DNA from: Nitrospirales bacterium
GTDB taxonomy: Bacteria; Nitrospirota; Nitrospiria; Nitrospirales; UBA8639
Direction of reading: 5' to 3'
DNA: 64,000 nucleotides
Assembly: GCA_965223275.1 (NCBI GenBank)
Contig: OZ244992.1
Coordinates: 2,993,134 to 3,057,133, forward strand
A program made the position numbers and the translations under genes. This document shows positions 20,138 through 27,547 of this stretch, one piece after another. Numbering within the stretch: the stretch's first letter is position 1; each line of letters starts with the position of its first letter. The notes under the pieces are model-generated. The model searched no databases, had not been told where the DNA came from, and worked only from the letters and a program-made list of their open reading frames with translations.

Positions 20138-20500
20138 TTGATGGTTGAATTGAGTGTTAGGCAAGTTGAAGGACGTCTGAGCCAGGTAAAGTGTGCCGTA
20201 TGTAAAGGCAATCGGTTTGGGATTGACTCCAGGACAGTCAAAGAGGATGGGGATTGGAAGGCCATTTGTCGAGATTGTTTTTATAACTTCTCCGTGTATA
20301 CGGATATGGAGTTTTATCTTCGAACGCAACCTGATGTTCCGTACCGGCTGCAAGAAATGACCTGCCCTTCCTGCCGGCACAGGGGCGTAATCCTTAATTT
20401 TCGAGCGGTGATTTCTGTTCGAGAGTCGGTGTATTTTCTGACCTGCCCATCCTGCCATACTCAATACACGGAAAAATCGTTTCTTGAAGTATTTGAATAA
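20138..20500 (+). CDS. Hypothetical protein with four CxxC pairs
   Basis: CAVC, CRDC, CPSC, CPSC; GGAG RBS upstream. Confidence 0.8.
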   Translation: MMVELSVRQVEGRLSQVKCAVCKGNRFGIDSRTVKEDGDWKAICRDCFYNFSVYTDMEFYLRTQPDVPYRLQEMTCPSCRHRGVILNFRAVISVRESVYFLTCPSCHTQYTEKSFLEVFE

Positions 20501-20522
20501 ATCTGTCAATAAGGATTTCTCC

Positions 20523-20735
20523 ATGAGCGATGCGGAAAAAACTCCCCCTTCTTCAAAAAAAACCCCAGAAGAAGAAACCGTGGCCCCAAAAGATGTGTCA
20601 CCTAAGCCTCGGAAAGAACTTCATGTGGTTTCCATCCCTCAGGAAGATGAATTGATGGCCGAGGAGATGGCCGAACTTTTTGACGAAGATCGAGTGACCC
20701 ATCGTCATGGAAATTCTGAACCTGAAAAAGACTAG
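20523..20735 (+). CDS. Small acidic hypothetical protein
   Basis: ATG 20523 inside ORF 20484-20735; follows the previous gene. Confidence 0.6.
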   Translation: MSDAEKTPPSSKKTPEEETVAPKDVSPKPRKELHVVSIPQEDELMAEEMAELFDEDRVTHRHGNSEPEKD

Positions 20736-21242: not shown

Positions 21243-21875
21243 ATGAGTCCAGTTGAACCCTCGAAACGGTCAAAAAAACTCAGTTACCAAGTCACTCATG
21301 CATCGGATGGGTCCCCTTTAATTGAGACCCATGACCATCCTCCCTTCGAACCGGTCGGAGAAAATGGAAGTTTAGATACGGTTCGAGACATTCTCTTCGG
21401 CGCACAAAGTCGGGAATTTGAAAAACGATGTGACCTTCTGGAGCAACAGATGCTTCAAGATCATGCCAATCTTCGAGATGAATTGACTCAAACCCTAGAT
21501 GACCTCAAAGGGCAAATTCAGAAAGAAATGCTCCAACTTTCCCAACAACTACAAGAAGAAAAAAAGACCCGCGTTGATACGTTCGTAGATTTGAAGAAGG
21601 TTGTACAAAGTTTTGAAACCAATTTGACGCAGGGATTTGCCAGGATGGATCAGGAAACCGCCTTGCAGGTTGAGGCGTTACAGCAAAGCTTAGTCGCGCA
21701 GCGAAAGGAATTAGATTTGCAAAGCCAGGAAGCCATGGACAAATTGGAAGCACATTTTCGTCAAGCGGTGCAGAATCTGATGGTCCAGAAGACGGATCGT
21801 GAAGTCTTGGCAGAAATGCTTGTGGATGTGGGCGTGCGTCTGAAAAATGGTCAGTCAGAATCGAAGGGTACCTAG
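21243..21875 (+). CDS. Coiled-coil hypothetical protein (first gene of GTPase cluster)
   Basis: LDTVRDILFGAQ motif then long heptad-rich helix; start uncertain (21168 or 21243). Confidence 0.8.
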   Translation: MSPVEPSKRSKKLSYQVTHASDGSPLIETHDHPPFEPVGENGSLDTVRDILFGAQSREFEKRCDLLEQQMLQDHANLRDELTQTLDDLKGQIQKEMLQLSQQLQEEKKTRVDTFVDLKKVVQSFETNLTQGFARMDQETALQVEALQQSLVAQRKELDLQSQEAMDKLEAHFRQAVQNLMVQKTDREVLAEMLVDVGVRLKNGQSESKGT

Positions 21876-21947
21876 TGTGATGGACGGTGCTGGGTCAAAT
21901 CCCATCTTTCAAAAAAATCTTTGGTTATAGGGTCAAAGCCAATTCCT

Positions 21948-23738
21948 ATGACTGCCTCCTCATCCTCACAATCCTGCCGCCCCTCGATTGAACCGTCCAC
22001 TCAAGAATCTCGAGGATTTTCACAACTTCGGGAGGTGTTACTGGGTCCGGAACAAACCCAATTACGCCATCTTCAAAAACAGCTTGATGATTTTACCTTA
22101 CAGCCTGATGCGGTGAGCCGGGTCTTGCCCGATGCTATTCGTTTGAGAGCCCAACGAGACCAACGACTTCTGGCCTCAATGATTCCCATTACTCAAGAGG
22201 CCCTGTCGGTGTCGATCAAGCAGTCGCCTCATCTGATCGTCGATACTCTCGCCCCAATCCTGGGTCCTGTGATCCGAAAGGCGACGCTTGATGCGATGCG
22301 TGGCATGTTGCAGTCTTTTAATCAAACGTTGGAATACAGTATGTCCTGGAACGGTCTCCAATGGAGATGGGAGGCGTGGAAGACCGGCCGGCCCTTTGCT
22401 GAAGTCGTGCTCCTGCATACCCTGCACTTTCGGGTGGAGCAGGTGTTCCTCATTCATAAACAGACAGGGCTGCTTTTGAACCACGTCGTAGCCGAGGGAA
22501 TCCAGGCACAGGGGGAAGAAGTGATTTCCGGAATGTTAACGGCGATTCAGGATTTCGTACGTGATTCTTTCGGGAGTTCCAAGGAAGAAGCATTGGAATC
22601 TCTCCGAATCGGAGAGCTCACCGTATGGGTCGAACAAGGTTCTCAAGCTATTCTCGCGGGTGTAATTCGAGGGACTCCTCCCGTTGAGCTCAGAAGAGTC
22701 TTCCGGGAAACCCTCGAGGTTGTTCAGTCCCAATTCTCTGGTCTGATTCAGCAATTTCAGGGAGACATCACTCCATTTTATGACACTCGCCTCTTTTTGG
22801 AAAACTGCTTGCAAGCTCAGTTTGTTCCGAAACCATCTCGAATCTCATGGGGGGTTTGGATGCTCCTATTGATGTTGTGTGGTGTTGGAGGGGTGTGGGC
22901 TGCTCGGACTTGGAACGAACATCAACAATGGAGTCGGTTTTATGAGGCCGTGGGAAAAGAAGACGGATTGGTGATTACCTCCACAAAAGAACAGATGGGA
23001 AAGACGGTGTTGTATGGATTGCGTGATCCGTTGGCTCGAGATCCTCAGGCACTTTTGGACAAGATGGGACAGACGGGTCACAATGTCTCCTTTCATTTCC
23101 AGCCGTATTTAGACTTGACCCCTAAATTTGTGGGCCAACGGGCAGAATCTCTGTTAGCCCCTCCTCAAGGTGTTTCAGTTCATGTAGAAGGATCTAAGTT
23201 GATTTTGCGTGGGGAGGCCTCTCACTCTTGGGTGAAACGTGCCCTTGCCTTCGCACCATTTTTACCTGGGGTCACAGCAGTCGACCACCAAGGGTTGGTC
23301 GATAAAAATTGGGCACGCTTTCACCGTCACCGTCAGGTTCTGGAAGGGCAAAAGATATTCTTTGAGATAGAAGAGTCACGAATTTCTGATGAAGAAAATT
23401 TCACGCTGTCTTCCATCCGCAAGAATATTCAAAGTTTGGAGCAACAGGCCAAAATCCTCGGTGTTCAACCTATCGTCGAAATTCAGGGCTTTTCCAGTCC
23501 CGATGGGTTGGAAAAGCTGAATTGGGAGTTGAGCCAACATCGTGCTCAAACTGTGAAACAAGCCCTTTCCACAGGGCCATGGAAACATATTCGCTTAGTT
23601 GCCATTGGAAAAGGGCCTGAGGAGGCAATCCTTTCAAAACAGAATGGTCTCGCCCGTCTTTCTCACGCGAGACGGGTTTCTTTCAACGTGAGAATTCCTT
23701 TACCAGCATCCGATACCGGTGGGCAGAGTACGTTTTGA
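21948..23738 (+). CDS. Membrane protein: cytoplasmic helical plus longin/roadblock-like region, one TM helix, periplasmic BON-like and OmpA-like domains
   Basis: TM WGVWMLLLMLCGVGGVWAA; OmpA-like VEIQGFSS.DG....N.ELSQHRA.TV...RRVSF; start uncertain (21921 or 21948). Confidence 0.8.
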   Translation: MTASSSSQSCRPSIEPSTQESRGFSQLREVLLGPEQTQLRHLQKQLDDFTLQPDAVSRVLPDAIRLRAQRDQRLLASMIPITQEALSVSIKQSPHLIVDTLAPILGPVIRKATLDAMRGMLQSFNQTLEYSMSWNGLQWRWEAWKTGRPFAEVVLLHTLHFRVEQVFLIHKQTGLLLNHVVAEGIQAQGEEVISGMLTAIQDFVRDSFGSSKEEALESLRIGELTVWVEQGSQAILAGVIRGTPPVELRRVFRETLEVVQSQFSGLIQQFQGDITPFYDTRLFLENCLQAQFVPKPSRISWGVWMLLLMLCGVGGVWAARTWNEHQQWSRFYEAVGKEDGLVITSTKEQMGKTVLYGLRDPLARDPQALLDKMGQTGHNVSFHFQPYLDLTPKFVGQRAESLLAPPQGVSVHVEGSKLILRGEASHSWVKRALAFAPFLPGVTAVDHQGLVDKNWARFHRHRQVLEGQKIFFEIEESRISDEENFTLSSIRKNIQSLEQQAKILGVQPIVEIQGFSSPDGLEKLNWELSQHRAQTVKQALSTGPWKHIRLVAIGKGPEEAILSKQNGLARLSHARRVSFNVRIPLPASDTGGQSTF

Positions 23739-24244
23739 ACCCCATCCAGAAAAAGATTTGTATGTTGGGAGGGTTTGGGGTAGGAAAAACTAGCCTGGTT
23801 AAGCGATTTGTCACAGGGCTGTTTTCGGAAAATTACCATACGACAATTGGGGTGAAGATCGATCAGAAACTCGTGACTCTCAATCACACGCAAGTGCTGC
23901 TCGTGCTATGGGATCTATACGGCGAGGATGATTTTCAAAAAATTCGCGCCTCCTATCTGCGAGGCACGTCAGGGTATGTCCTGGTTGTTGACGGAACTCG
24001 GAAAGAAACTGTGTCGACCGCGGTTCACTTGCATGAGTTTGCCAGAAATGTCATCGGTGAGGTGCCCTTTGCCTTGATGGTCAATAAGCACGATTTAACC
24101 CAAGAATGGGTGTACGAAGCGTCTATGCTGGATTCGTTAGCCCGAGAGGCATTGATGATAATAGAAACGAGTGCCAAAACGGGGCAAGGAGTGGAGCAGA
24201 CCTTCCTGGAACTTACCCGTCGTATGATTGAATCACCCCCATGA
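23735..24244 (+). CDS. Rab/Ras-like small GTPase
   Basis: G1 GGFGVGKTS, G2 TIGV, G3 WDLYGE, G4 NKHD, G5 TSAKTG; TTGA start/stop overlap with the upstream gene. Confidence 0.93.
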   Translation: MNPIQKKICMLGGFGVGKTSLVKRFVTGLFSENYHTTIGVKIDQKLVTLNHTQVLLVLWDLYGEDDFQKIRASYLRGTSGYVLVVDGTRKETVSTAVHLHEFARNVIGEVPFALMVNKHDLTQEWVYEASMLDSLAREALMIIETSAKTGQGVEQTFLELTRRMIESPP

Positions 24245-24253
24245 AACAGATGT

Positions 24254-24269
24254 GTCCGATATCTCGGAC
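24254..24269. promoter_or_regulatory. Palindromic operator candidate upstream of the sigma-54 activator
   Basis: GTCCGA-TATC-TCGGAC perfect 6-bp inverted repeat. Confidence 0.35.
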
Positions 24270-24402: not shown

Positions 24403-26166
24403 ATGGCGAAGTGGTTTGATGCGTTGGTTGTTCAACGGGTGTCCAGTCATGTCTTTGAGCTACATGATCCCATACCTGACTGGTACCCTAGGAGTCCTGC
24501 GTCGACCGAATTTTTTCTTGCACCCCTGGATCTACTTCAGCAATCACATTTTCTTCAATCCTTTTTAGAAGAGGCTGAGAAATTTTGGCTATCAAGCGAA
24601 GAGGGGTATTTGCGATCCGGGCTATGGAGTGAACCTGAGTATTTTGGGCAGGACATTTTTTTGGAGGCCACGGCTGTCGTGGAAGAAGGGCGTCACCAGC
24701 TTGTTGTTCAGCAGGTGACATCTGACATCCATCCCTTGAAATCCGTGTTACAAAAAGCCCGTGAGGCCTATCTTCTGCACGACCGGGATCGCCAAGAATG
24801 GGAGCATGCCAAATCCGTCTTGACCAAACGGCTGCAACAGCACGAGCAAGTCAATGAAGACCTGACGACGATGCTGGACCGACTGCCTATGGGAAGTCTT
24901 TTGGTTGATCGGACGGGTCGAATACTCTATGCCAACCATCACGCGATTGAGTTGCTTGGTCCTCAGGCCTTGCCTCCAAAAGGGCAATGGGTGGCTGATG
25001 TTTTTGAGTTGTCGGAGGGAGAGTGGATGAATCTGAAAAGTGTGCTGGAGTTACCTCATGGAACTGGGACATCCATTGGATTTCCCGTTCCAAAAGGTTT
25101 CGGACGAAAAAGCGATCTTGAGATGGGCATTCATGATGGTCCTCAACATTCTTCCAACAAAGTGGTATTGATCAAGGAAGCGTTTCCTAGGCTGGCCACT
25201 CCCTCTTCTCCCAAAGGGTCTTTTCATTTCCATGAACTGATTGGTGCCAGTGACGAAATGCAGGGCTTATACCAAACCATTGGGGATGTCGCACGAGTAG
25301 AAGTTCCCGTATTAATCCAGGGCGAAACCGGAACAGGAAAGGAACTTGTGGCGCGAGCGATCCATCAATTAAGTGCACGAGCCAATCGAGCTTTCGTGGC
25401 CGTGAACTGTGCAGGGCTGACGGAATCCCTTTTGGGAAGCCAGTTATTCGGGCATAGGAAAGGGGCATTTACGGGAGCGATGTATGATCAGGAAGGATTT
25501 TTTGAGGCCGCGCAAGGAGGGACGTTATTCTTGGATGAAATTGGCGATATGCCACATCCTGTGCAAACGATTTTGCTGCGGGCTCTTCAGGAAAAGGAAA
25601 TTATTCGTCTGGGAGAGTCTAAGCCACGAAAAGTCGATGTGCGCGTCCTTGCAGCCTCCAATCAACATTTACAAGAGCTCGTTCGTCGCGGGCAGTTTCG
25701 AGCGGACTTGTTTTATCGCATTCGCGTCGCTCGGTTGGATTTACCTCCTTTACGGAAACGACCGGGTGACATTTCCCTTCTCTGTCAAGCCTTTTTGGAA
25801 AGAGGAAGGGGGCCGATGGGGAAACCATCTGTAGAGAGTTTCTCTGTGCACGCCAGACAACATTTACTTCACTACCCCTGGCCAGGGAATGTGCGAGAAC
25901 TAAAAAGCGCGGTTGAATATGCCCTGATCCGTTGTTCGGGGAGGATGATACAACCTGGGGATTTACCTCCAGAAGTCAGGTGTTTCATGGATGAGAGCAC
26001 TGATGCTCCCCAGGCAGAAGGAAAGGAACGAGATCATATCTTGCAAGCGCTTCGACAAACACAAGGGAAGCGGAGTCAAGCCGCGAAAGTGCTTGGTATG
26101 AGCCGTTCCACGTTGTATCGACGGCTGCGGGATTTGAATATTTCGTGGTCTCAGTTTAGGGAATAA
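24403..26166 (+). CDS. Sigma-54-dependent transcriptional activator (unknown N-terminal domain, PAS, AAA+, Fis-type HTH)
   Basis: [38 protein letters not shown]-terminal [19 protein letters not shown]. Confidence 0.95.
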
Positions 26167-26489
26167 AAAATAGGCAGGAAGGGAGTCTGTATCCGTTTCA
26201 CTTTTCCTGTGTCTGGGTGTTGCCTTCATCTCTCATTTCTTTTAACATCAGATGTTTGGCCGTAGCGGTTTGATGATTTGTTGAGAGCGGTTTTGAAGCT
26301 CCTTGACGGTCTTGAAAAATTCCCCTTTATTGCCATTGCATCCAATCTCACCCGAGTGTACCCCTCTAACGCCTTGAAGTTTCCATGACGCACTCCAGTT
26401 TTGCACTAACCGCCTGGATTATCACGTCTATCACCGTATGTTGATGCATGCTAACAGTGGTTCGATTGCTAACCAACGAAAGGATTCGT

Positions 26490-27547
26490 TGATGATTTAT
26501 TTTGTGCATGTGGTGTTGTTCCTCTTCTTTCTGCTTATCCCTTCTGTAGCCACTGCGGGTGTGTTGGGTTCCGTCGTTTTAAAAGATGGAAGTATCATTC
26601 ATGGAGATATCGTGGATATGATGGAAGGGAAACTTCAAGTGAAAGCCGCCTTTGGAGCCGATAAACCTTTTATGATCAAATGGGAAGAGGTTGCCAATAT
26701 TGCGACTAGTCAGCCCATTATTCTGGTTCTAGGGGATGATGTGCGGGTCACCGGAATCGTGGAGAAGGGCGATCCGGGGACTCTTCGACTCACGAGCAAA
26801 CCTTTATCCGAGCCGGTCCTGATTAATTTAGATACGGTTACCGCTATTAACCCTCCTCCTCAAGTCCCGGTCAAGTTTAAAATCAATTTAAATTTGGGGA
26901 CAAAATTCTCGTCTGGGAATACAGATGACGCACAAATTAATTTGTTGGGTGGATTTGTGGCGAGGAGTGAACGTCTTCGCGTCATCCTCGATGCACGGTA
27001 TTTCTATTCCGAAGAGGATGATAGGGTGACTGATCGAAATGCCTTTGGGACATTGGATCTTAACTATTTCATGACCCAACGATTCTATTGGGTGTTGGCC
27101 CTCCTGATGCAGCAAGATACCTTCGATGATTTGGATTTGCGAACCGCGGTGACGACCGGTCCCGGTTATCAGTTTCTTGAGAAAGGCGATCTTTCCAATC
27201 CCTATTTCACCAATACGACATTACAGGGGGATATCGGGATCGGTTATTTATGGGAAAATCGCAAAATTGACGAAGATAGTGACAATGCTGTCTACCGGTG
27301 GTCCTTACGCTGGGAATGGGAGCCCATAAAAAAGCTTACGATCTTTCACCAACATCAGGGTTTTCCGGAAGTGGACGATTTGTCAGCCTATGTGATCAAT
27401 TCACTTCAGGGTATTCGAATCGATGTGTGGGAAGGCATCAATATATCCGCACAGGTTCAATGGAATTATGATAATGACCCGGCCGAAGGTTCAAAGAAGG
27501 CTGATACCGTCGTATTTTTTGCCGTCGGATATAACTACGAGAATTGA
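26490..27547 (+). CDS. DUF481-like outer-membrane beta-barrel protein
   Basis: Signal peptide; alternating barrel strands; SGNTD motif; C-terminal FAVGYNYEN. Confidence 0.8.

Follow-up and report, generated by a model that had tools for sequence, protein, structure and literature searches.

A predicted longin/roadblock-type domain in the membrane protein of a Rup1 GTPase cassette from Nitrospirales

A membrane protein encoded at positions 21948 to 23738 (+) of the window, a 64,000-nucleotide stretch of the Nitrospirales bacterium contig OZ244992.1 (assembly GCA_965223275.1), is predicted to contain a domain of the longin/roadblock fold in its cytoplasmic part, and its gene adjoins that of a Group 1 Rup (Rup1) small GTPase. 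The assignment of residues ~141-299 to the fold shared by longin domains (LDs) and roadblock domains (RDs), which in bacteria as in humans dock and regulate small GTPases, is well supported by two AlphaFold2 models and their structural matches, and we hold it with high confidence. The role proposed here for the domain, that of an inner-membrane docking platform for the Rup1 GTPase and the receptor-like input of a four-gene cassette, draws on these models and on gene context, and we give it an even chance.

Architecture and predicted fold of the cytoplasmic domain

The open reading frame (ORF) extends from 21921 to 23738 (+) and encodes 605 amino acids (aa) from a TTG start; the database copy of the protein begins at the ATG at 21948 and comprises 596 aa. 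Coordinates 22431-22823 correspond to residues 171-301. From the N terminus, the protein consists of a cytoplasmic helical region, the longin/roadblock-like domain, one transmembrane helix, a periplasmic linker, and an OmpA-like domain. The helical region (residues 30-140; 22008-22340, +) is conserved, the motifs LRxLLxxPEQ, VSRVLPDAI (VSRVLPDAIxLR), GPAIRKA (GPAIRKAI), and SLNQTLE being kept in the alignment of relatives, and AlphaFold2 models it as helices with a predicted local distance difference test (pLDDT) score below 50. Two further helices stand ahead of the β-sheet core (residues 143-155 and 159-167 in the AlphaFold2 domain model; 22341-22427, +). The conservation analysis found a WR...RTG..FAEVV motif to be invariant in them, and they may be the counterpart of the roadblock N-terminal helix. 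The core itself, β1-β2-α1-β3-β4-β5-α2-α3, occupies residues 170-299 (22428-22817, +), in the AlphaFold2 model, and residues 171-301 read in frame as RVEQVFLIHKQTGLLLNHV...VISGMLTAIQDFVRDSF...LESLRIGELTVWVEQGSQAILAGVIRG...

A hydropathy scan placed the transmembrane helix at residues 308-330 (22842-22910, +), ~10 residues past α3. It is the sole hydrophobic segment of the protein, which has no N-terminal signal sequence, and 74 of 79 homologues also have one hydrophobic segment. We infer an N-in, C-out topology because a signal peptide is absent, there is a single transmembrane helix, and OmpA domains are periplasmic; the positive-inside count around the helix was nondiscriminating (3.15 versus 2.84 Lys plus Arg). 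A near-invariant pair of Cys and Leu residues was observed at the end of α3 (motif LExCLQAQ, residues ~293-299, 22797-22817), ~10 residues before the transmembrane helix.

A first-pass annotation, made from the letters of the window, had singled out the segment just N-terminal to the transmembrane helix and had expected standard annotation to label the gene only as OmpA family. The segment is indeed in frame, with the letters as quoted and the helix at 308-330 directly after it, and the expectation about annotation was right as well. Pfam recognizes OmpA only, at residues 480-573 (E 2e-8; 34.9 bits versus a gathering cutoff of 27.2), the NCBIfam matches are weak, C-terminal, and of the OmpA/MotB/TssL type only, and both Pfam and NCBIfam leave the N-terminal 310 residues blank. 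Chance is a poor explanation for the segment, which is the most conserved part of a family for which an exhaustive HMMER search with the domain alone gave 3,874 clusters at 50% identity. In nearly all of these clusters, the domain lies at about residues 145-295 of a ~590-aa protein. Longer relatives (800-1,300 aa) likewise end in OmpA, and some of them have BON domains in the periplasmic linker. A word-indexed search with the cytoplasmic region found 4,451 relatives, the closest of which were from Nitrospirota.

The fold was predicted by AlphaFold2 from an alignment of 79 sequences (the window protein and fetched loci) of 45-77% identity, using two constructs with different boundaries. For the whole cytoplasmic region (residues 30-312), the mean pLDDT was 61, the first 110 residues forming low-confidence helices and the chain being well ordered from about residue 159 onwards. 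For the domain only (residues 141-299), the pLDDT was 80.1 and the predicted template modeling (pTM) score was 0.71. The order of elements was identical in the two models, α-α-β-β-α-β-β-β-α-α, with β1 at residues 170-179, β2 at 185-190, α1 at 199-217, β3 at 227-230, β4 at 233-239, β5 at 243-251, α2 at 256-277, and α3 at 284-298. In the numbering of the domain model, the helices (H) and strands (E) are H3-15, H19-27, E30-39, E45-50, H59-77, E87-90, E93-99, E103-111, H116-137, and H144-158. LD/RD domains are two-layer α/β sandwiches in which a five-stranded antiparallel sheet carries a single helix on one of its faces. A longin domain is defined as ββαβββαα and a roadblock domain as αββαβββα (PMC3747258), and both models follow the order along the chain that covers the two, (α)ββαβββα(α). 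The hairpin, helix, three strands, and helix that had been read from the sequence reappear in the models as β1-β2-α1-β3-β4-β5 and the helices.

Foldseek searches of the PDB gave a uniform picture. For both models, 50 of the 50 best matches were longin or roadblock proteins, with a best E of 8.5e-5 at a probability of 1.00 and template modeling (TM) scores of up to 0.60 when normalized by the query and 0.71 when normalized by the target. The best scores were obtained with longin-type proteins. For instance, the AP-1 σ3 chain 9ddt_B matched at E 8.5e-5 with a target-normalized TM score of 0.71, the σ1 chain 4p6z_S had a root mean square deviation of 2.7 Å over 128 columns, and the Mon1-Ccz1 chain 5ldd_B aligned over 158 of 159 columns with a query-normalized TM score of 0.60. 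MglB chains were among the matches of highest sequence identity (19-23%); 3t12_B, for example, matched at E 2e-3 with 21% identity, and 1j3w_A had a query-normalized TM score of 0.51. The list also included the AP-1/2/3/4 σ and μ N-terminal domains, COPI ζ, TRAPP Bet5/Trs23 (2j3t_C), Sec22b, FLCN/FNIP, GATOR1, CPLANE, LAMTOR/Ego, the RagA/C C-terminal domains, and dynein LC7. The first-pass annotation had proposed a longin/roadblock-like fold and had named MglB, Ragulator, TRAPP, and Mon1-Ccz1 as its likenesses. Each of these families is represented among the PDB matches, and the refuting outcome named in that annotation, a predicted structure unlike such folds, did not arise.

It is very improbable, in our judgment, that the domain is instead a PAS- or GAF-like sensor of a small cytoplasmic ligand whose likeness to LD/RD domains is incidental. 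PAS, GAF, and LD/RD domains do share a similar β-β-α-β-β-β core in a two-layer α/β sandwich, and sequence methods placed the domain in no family, both of which speak for such a sensor. But not one PAS or GAF fold occurs among the 50 best Foldseek matches of either model, and no relative had a Pfam match to PAS or GAF even at E 10. The PDB contains far more PAS and GAF domains than LD/RD domains, and it is because the Foldseek lists are homogeneous and free of them despite this abundance that the fold assignment can be called well supported.

Several results weigh against the assignment. First, the Foldseek E-values are modest (1e-4 to 1e-2), and the AlphaFold2 models rest on 79 sequences only. 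Second, a hidden Markov model profile of the cytoplasmic region found no LD/RD protein among the PDB sequences; its matches to a phage tail protein (E 0.036), ATP synthase δ, and Rv1264 were treated as noise. Third, Pfam scans gave only subthreshold hits, to Robl_LC7 (PF03259) in just 2 of 79 relatives (E 0.016) and to Fuz_longin_1 (PF19036) in just 2 of 86 representatives (E 0.078), and the window protein itself had no match to Robl_LC7 at E up to 1 or to the Pfam longin families Fuz_longin_1, Longin, and Sedlin. Finally, hhalign of the domain against an MglB profile, built on 12 database homologues together with the MglB proteins of M. xanthus (the same sequence as 6h5b_B) and T. thermophilus, was not significant (E 0.036-0.6, probability <2%), a weak negative given the low diversity in both profiles. 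The most permissive local hhalign run gave a colinear alignment of 94 columns that set β1-β2, α1, and β3-β5 on the matching MglB elements (E 0.24).

The same kind of evidence bears on whether the fold is an artifact of structure prediction from a shallow alignment, which we consider hardly probable at all. Such an artifact would fit the 79 sequences of 45-77% identity, the mean pLDDT of 61 for the first model, and a Foldseek E of at best 1e-4, but changing the boundaries between the two runs altered none of the secondary-structure elements, the domain-only model has a pLDDT of 80 and a pTM of 0.71, the Foldseek lists are homogeneous, and the same pattern of elements had been read earlier from the sequence alone. 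The domain lies outside PF03259 and every longin Pfam family, and what is claimed here is a shared fold, not family membership. LD and RD are assigned jointly, across the longin and roadblock permutations, the models having helices at both ends. The domain probably also works like LD/RD proteins.

The putative partner GTPase and the conserved face of the domain

The gene that follows (23735-24244, +) encodes the Rup1 GTPase, a Ras-family protein of 169 aa (PF00071, E 4e-31), and in the window its TTG start overlaps the TGA stop of the membrane protein gene by 4 nucleotides (nt). The GTPase has the motifs GGFGVGKT (G1), DLYGE (G3, with no catalytic Gln), NKHD (G4), and SAK (G5). Its DxxG-E and NKxD motifs fit the Rup family as defined in PMC4316618, and it does not belong to the MglA family. 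Among 68 orthologues, the position of Ras Q61 is occupied by Glu in 49, Asp in 10, Ala in 7, and Thr in 2, and never by Gln, and the position of Ras G12 is Phe in 62. Because the catalytic Gln is absent and a Phe stands at the Ras G12 position, this GTPase needs partners.

The gene order was compared in 80 loci from Nitrospirota, Acidobacteriota, Cyanobacteria, Desulfobacterota, Verrucomicrobiota, Binatota, and others. A homologous Rup-type GTPase gene adjoins the membrane protein gene in 79 of the 80, the sole exception being cut short by a contig edge, and a coiled-coil gene lies directly upstream of the membrane protein gene in 74. The start of the GTPase gene overlaps the stop of the membrane protein gene by 4 nt in 28 loci, and in nearly all others the two are ≤36 nt apart. 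Judged from this arrangement, the GTPase and membrane protein genes are obligately associated and translationally coupled. An apparent fusion of the membrane protein and the GTPase in one locus (L062) was ruled out by an in-frame stop between the two genes.

Conservation was scored column by column across 86 cluster representatives from many phyla, by how frequent the most common residue is, and averaged over each element. The highest values were found for β1 (VEQVFLIH), at 0.92, and for α1 (SGMLTAIQDFVRDSF), at 0.83, and these are the best-conserved elements of the whole membrane protein. They are followed by β5 and the helix α0 before β1 (0.80 each), α3 (0.54), β3 (0.52), α2 (0.49), the OmpA domain (0.48), and the periplasmic linker (0.36). 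Moreover, α1 is conserved at consecutive residues all round the helix, not merely along a buried stripe. In solved LD/RD complexes, the GTPase sits on the single-helix face, and dimerization occurs via β3 and α1 (Levine et al. 2013, PMC3747258). It is this canonical GTPase-binding face that is most strongly constrained. Among the components, evolution is slowest in the LD domain and the GTPase (mean pairwise distances, 0.62 and 0.66, respectively); the distance is 1.26 for the coiled-coil protein and reaches 1.45 in the periplasmic part. Such slow evolution fits a conserved interface with a conserved partner and does not by itself give the identity of that partner.

One result from coevolution counts against docking of the GTPase on the LD domain. 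A mirror-tree analysis (distance matrices and partial correlations among the cassette components) did not single out the LD-GTPase pair, the partial r with the GTPase being 0.22 for the LD domain versus 0.43 for the N-terminal helical region. That region (residues 30-140) may fold only together with a partner, which could be the coiled-coil protein or the GTPase. The better tracking of the GTPase by the helical region speaks for another reading, in which the LD/RD fold makes no contact with the GTPase and serves as a dimerization or assembly module for the membrane and coiled-coil proteins, the GTPase being regulated elsewhere, e.g., by the N-terminal helical region or the output protein. LD/RD domains act as dimerization modules in general, dynein LC7 and the adaptor σ subunits at the head of the match list being examples, and the coiled-coil gene is equally conserved in the cassette. 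We nevertheless regard an assembly module without GTPase contact as unlikely. The conservation lies on the single-helix GTPase face, not on the β3 dimerization edge strand (0.52), and the apparent translational coupling is specifically to the GTPase gene.

A putative docking platform and the rest of the cassette

In the arrangement that we put forward, the LD/RD domain would be held ~10 residues from the inner face of the cytoplasmic membrane, with one transmembrane helix and the periplasmic OmpA-like module as its anchor, and would probably dimerize like other LD/RD domains. By analogy with the solved complexes, Rup1 would dock on the face that carries the near-invariant single helix α1. The periplasmic BON-like/OmpA part may sense changes in the envelope or cell wall, and a sensed change would then alter how the platform holds or loads the GTPase, an exchange-factor-like or recruiting role being the most likely one. 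Rup1-GTP would in turn switch transcription by engaging the downstream-encoded σ54 activator at its N-terminal domain. Because there is no Gln at the Ras Q61 position, hydrolysis would require help from a partner, and either the output N-terminal domain or the platform would have to supply what the GTPase misses. Dimerization, direct binding, the direction of regulation, and periplasmic sensing are steps that we infer, and GTPase binding, its stoichiometry, and activity as an exchange factor for guanine nucleotides (GEF) or GTPase-activating protein (GAP) are read from the context.

A recruiting or exchange role is favored on several grounds. First, a receptor-like input normally activates its G protein. 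Second, a GAP candidate is already on offer, since the N-terminal region of the output protein has an invariant Gln that was speculated to supply the one absent from the GTPase (PMC4316618). Third, the closest structural matches are GEF platforms. Mon1-Ccz1 is the GEF of Rab7, and TRAPP Bet5/Trs23 is the GEF of Rab1. More specifically, the domain could be a genuine exchange-factor platform of the longin type (ββαβββαα) that serves Rup1, which we think quite unlikely.

The only bacterial precedents, MglB and the CvnB/MfpD type, are by analogy a point against the preference for a GEF-like or recruiting role, as they are GAP-type; CvnB/MfpD-type proteins are the roadblock proteins of actinobacterial conservons. 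Along these lines, the LD/RD domain could bind Rup1 as an MglB-like GTPase-activating platform that switches it off at the envelope, with the output protein as a pure effector. Binding would then reposition residues of the GTPase itself, e.g., the conserved Glu or Asp at the Ras Q61 position. This is the main alternative, though we see it as unlikely. MglB, for which a complex with its GTPase has been solved, is a bacterial roadblock partner of the GAP type and gives no catalytic residue (PMC3747258, PMC4316618), its chains are among the Foldseek matches of highest identity (19-23%), and the residue at the Q61 position is acidic in 59 of the 68 GTPase orthologues. However, it is GEF-type or adaptor longins, and not MglB, that match best in structure, the hhalign comparison with MglB was not significant, the partner GTPase is not of the MglA type, and the putative Gln acting in trans has been assigned to the output N-terminal domain (PMC4316618).

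Sensing by the docking platform would depend on the periplasmic OmpA-like domain (23358-23690, +; PF00691, E 2e-8). In OmpA/Pal structures, a conserved Asp and a conserved Arg (the G-H-T-D...R-A motif) contact the peptidoglycan stem peptide. Here, the motif reads G523-F-S-S526-P-D-G...N...L-S-Q-H-R541-A, with Ser526 (23496-23498) at the canonical Asp position and Arg541 (23541-23543) present, so that GHTD appears as GFSS and the Arg of SQHRA is kept, just as had been noted from the letters. Among 72 orthologues with a recognizable motif, the Asp position is Asp in 53, Ser in 13, and Asn in 6, and the Arg is present in all 72. The Ser variants belong to the marine Nitrospirales clade of the window (L001-L010) and to a few cyanobacteria, and Asn is also found in some cyanobacteria. 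The Asp-to-Ser change is real and lineage-specific; the family as a whole does not share it. It is a further point against the proposal, as loss of the Asp makes cell wall binding, and hence the proposed sensing, uncertain in this lineage.

The first component of the Rup1 cassette, a coiled-coil cytoplasmic protein, is encoded at 21243-21875 (+), with a conserved Met at 21243 in an ORF open from 21168. It has no Pfam family, keeps the motifs LDxIRDILFG and KTDRxxLA, and matches the coiled-coil cytoplasmic protein of PMC4316618. A motif common to it (IRDILFGxQ) and to the membrane protein (LRxLLxGPEQ) was considered and rejected (hhalign E 0.065, probability 0.85%).

The output protein, encoded at 24404-26166 (+), consists of an N-terminal Rup-associated domain (24404-24800) followed by PAS, σ54-type AAA+, and Fis helix-turn-helix domains recognized by Pfam. 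The N-terminal ~130 aa are without a Pfam family and contain the motifs PFLxxFLxxAxxFW, SGxWxE, LEAxA, and QKARE. The fourth gene of the cassette always opens with a homologue of these first ~130 residues, and the remainder varies by phylum. In Nitrospira, it is a σ54 AAA+ activator; in other phyla, the proteins sharing the N-terminal domain are histidine kinases, REC/Hpt hybrid kinases, a GAF kinase, and an HD-GYP phosphodiesterase. The N-terminal domain is presumed to be the GTPase-reading or GAP domain of PMC4316618. The cassette is arranged divergently in four Desulfobacterales loci (L026, L032, L044, and L054), with genes for the GTPase (37-41% identical) and for a σ54-type AAA+ protein placed on the opposite strand, upstream of those for the coiled-coil and membrane proteins.

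With respect to regulation, the σ54 promoter consensus TGGCAC-N5-TTGCW had no match in the window at ≤1 mismatch. A perfect palindrome, GTCCGATATCTCGGAC, occurs at 24254-24269, 10 nt past the GTPase stop, with a T-rich stretch after it. A protein-binding site is one possible function, and a weak terminator or attenuator separating the GTPase and σ54 activator genes is another; terminator-like sites are no more frequent in the region than chance would give. The σ54 activator gene has an outer-membrane-like protein of 369 aa encoded downstream of it, at 26438-27547, and because this position is kept in most Nitrospira loci, the protein is a candidate regulon member. On the upstream side, two ORFs, one Cys-rich with a zinc ribbon (20138-20500) and one small and acidic (20484-20735), are kept only in the marine Nitrospirales loci L001-L010.

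Relation to known GTPase systems

The closest known system was described by Wuichet and Søgaard-Andersen (2014, Genome Biol Evol 7:57; PMC4316618), who found by comparative genomics that Group 1 Rup genes neighbor three others, encoding a coiled-coil protein, an "Unc-TM-OmpA" membrane protein with a domain called "unknown," and an output protein. The gene studied here is a member of the "Unc-TM-OmpA" group of this Rup1 system. Like that group, its product has a conserved N-terminal domain, an inner-membrane helix, and a C-terminal OmpA domain, and the neighborhood likewise contains a coiled-coil protein, a Rup GTPase without the G3 Gln, and an output protein whose N-terminal domain is conserved. 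There are two differences. First, the Nitrospirota output is a σ54 AAA+ activator, whereas the output proteins listed in PMC4316618 are diguanylate cyclase/phosphodiesterase proteins or histidine kinases. Second, the OmpA Asp, which is kept in the majority of the Rup1 family, is replaced by Ser in this lineage. In the literature, of which few subscription journals were covered, no later paper was found that characterizes the Rup1 system or gives its domain a fold, and no experimental study of any Group 1 Rup member was found in PMC4316618 or in the searchable literature. What is new beyond PMC4316618 is the LD/RD fold for the "unknown" domain, the σ54 output in Nitrospirota, and the clade-specific loss of the OmpA Asp.

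The Rup GTPases were defined as being uncoupled from MglB/roadblock genes (0 of 121; Table 1 of PMC4316618). If our reading is correct, the Rup1 GTPases do have an LD/RD-type partner, and the unannotated domain is a concrete candidate for the Rup1 regulator that has been missing. As a receptor, the membrane protein would be of a new kind in bacteria, linked to peptidoglycan and signaling via a small GTPase to kinases, cyclic di-GMP enzymes, or, as here, a σ54 activator. In addition, ~3,900 clusters labeled only as "OmpA family" or "hypothetical" would gain a domain assignment.

Compared with MglB (Roadblock/LC7, PF03259), the GAP platform of MglA, the domain matches at the level of the fold, and its gene, too, lies beside that of a small Ras-superfamily GTPase in a multigene cassette. 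However, MglB is a soluble single-domain protein, whereas the domain described here is fused to a transmembrane helix and a periplasmic OmpA module. It also has extra C-terminal helices, lacks significant sequence or profile similarity to MglB, and is paired with Rup1, not with a GTPase of the MglA family.

The best structural matches are the eukaryotic longin platforms (Mon1-Ccz1, TRAPP, AP/COPI σ/ζ, and Sec22b), with which the models share the β-β-α-β-β-β-α-α order. As with Mon1-Ccz1 or Ragulator, the domain is placed at a membrane surface beside a Rab/Ras-like GTPase. Unlike these platforms, it is bacterial, has its own transmembrane anchor and two extra N-terminal helices, and shows 12-15% identity and no profile match to them. 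Prokaryotes have been said to have no longin domains (Levine et al. 2013, PMC3747258), and Rup1 is a bacterial GTPase group that clusters with Rab/Ras/Rho/Ran GTPases of eukaryotes. If the LD/RD fold is correct, the rule that small GTPases work on longin/roadblock platforms (PMC3747258) extends to the bacterial group nearest Rab/Ras/Rho/Ran. Should the domain prove to be a true longin-type exchange-factor platform, a pair of a longin domain and a Rab-like GTPase would exist in bacteria as a membrane-anchored, cell-wall-coupled receptor, and this pair could be ancestral to the eukaryotic Rab-GEF platforms or could be their source by horizontal transfer.

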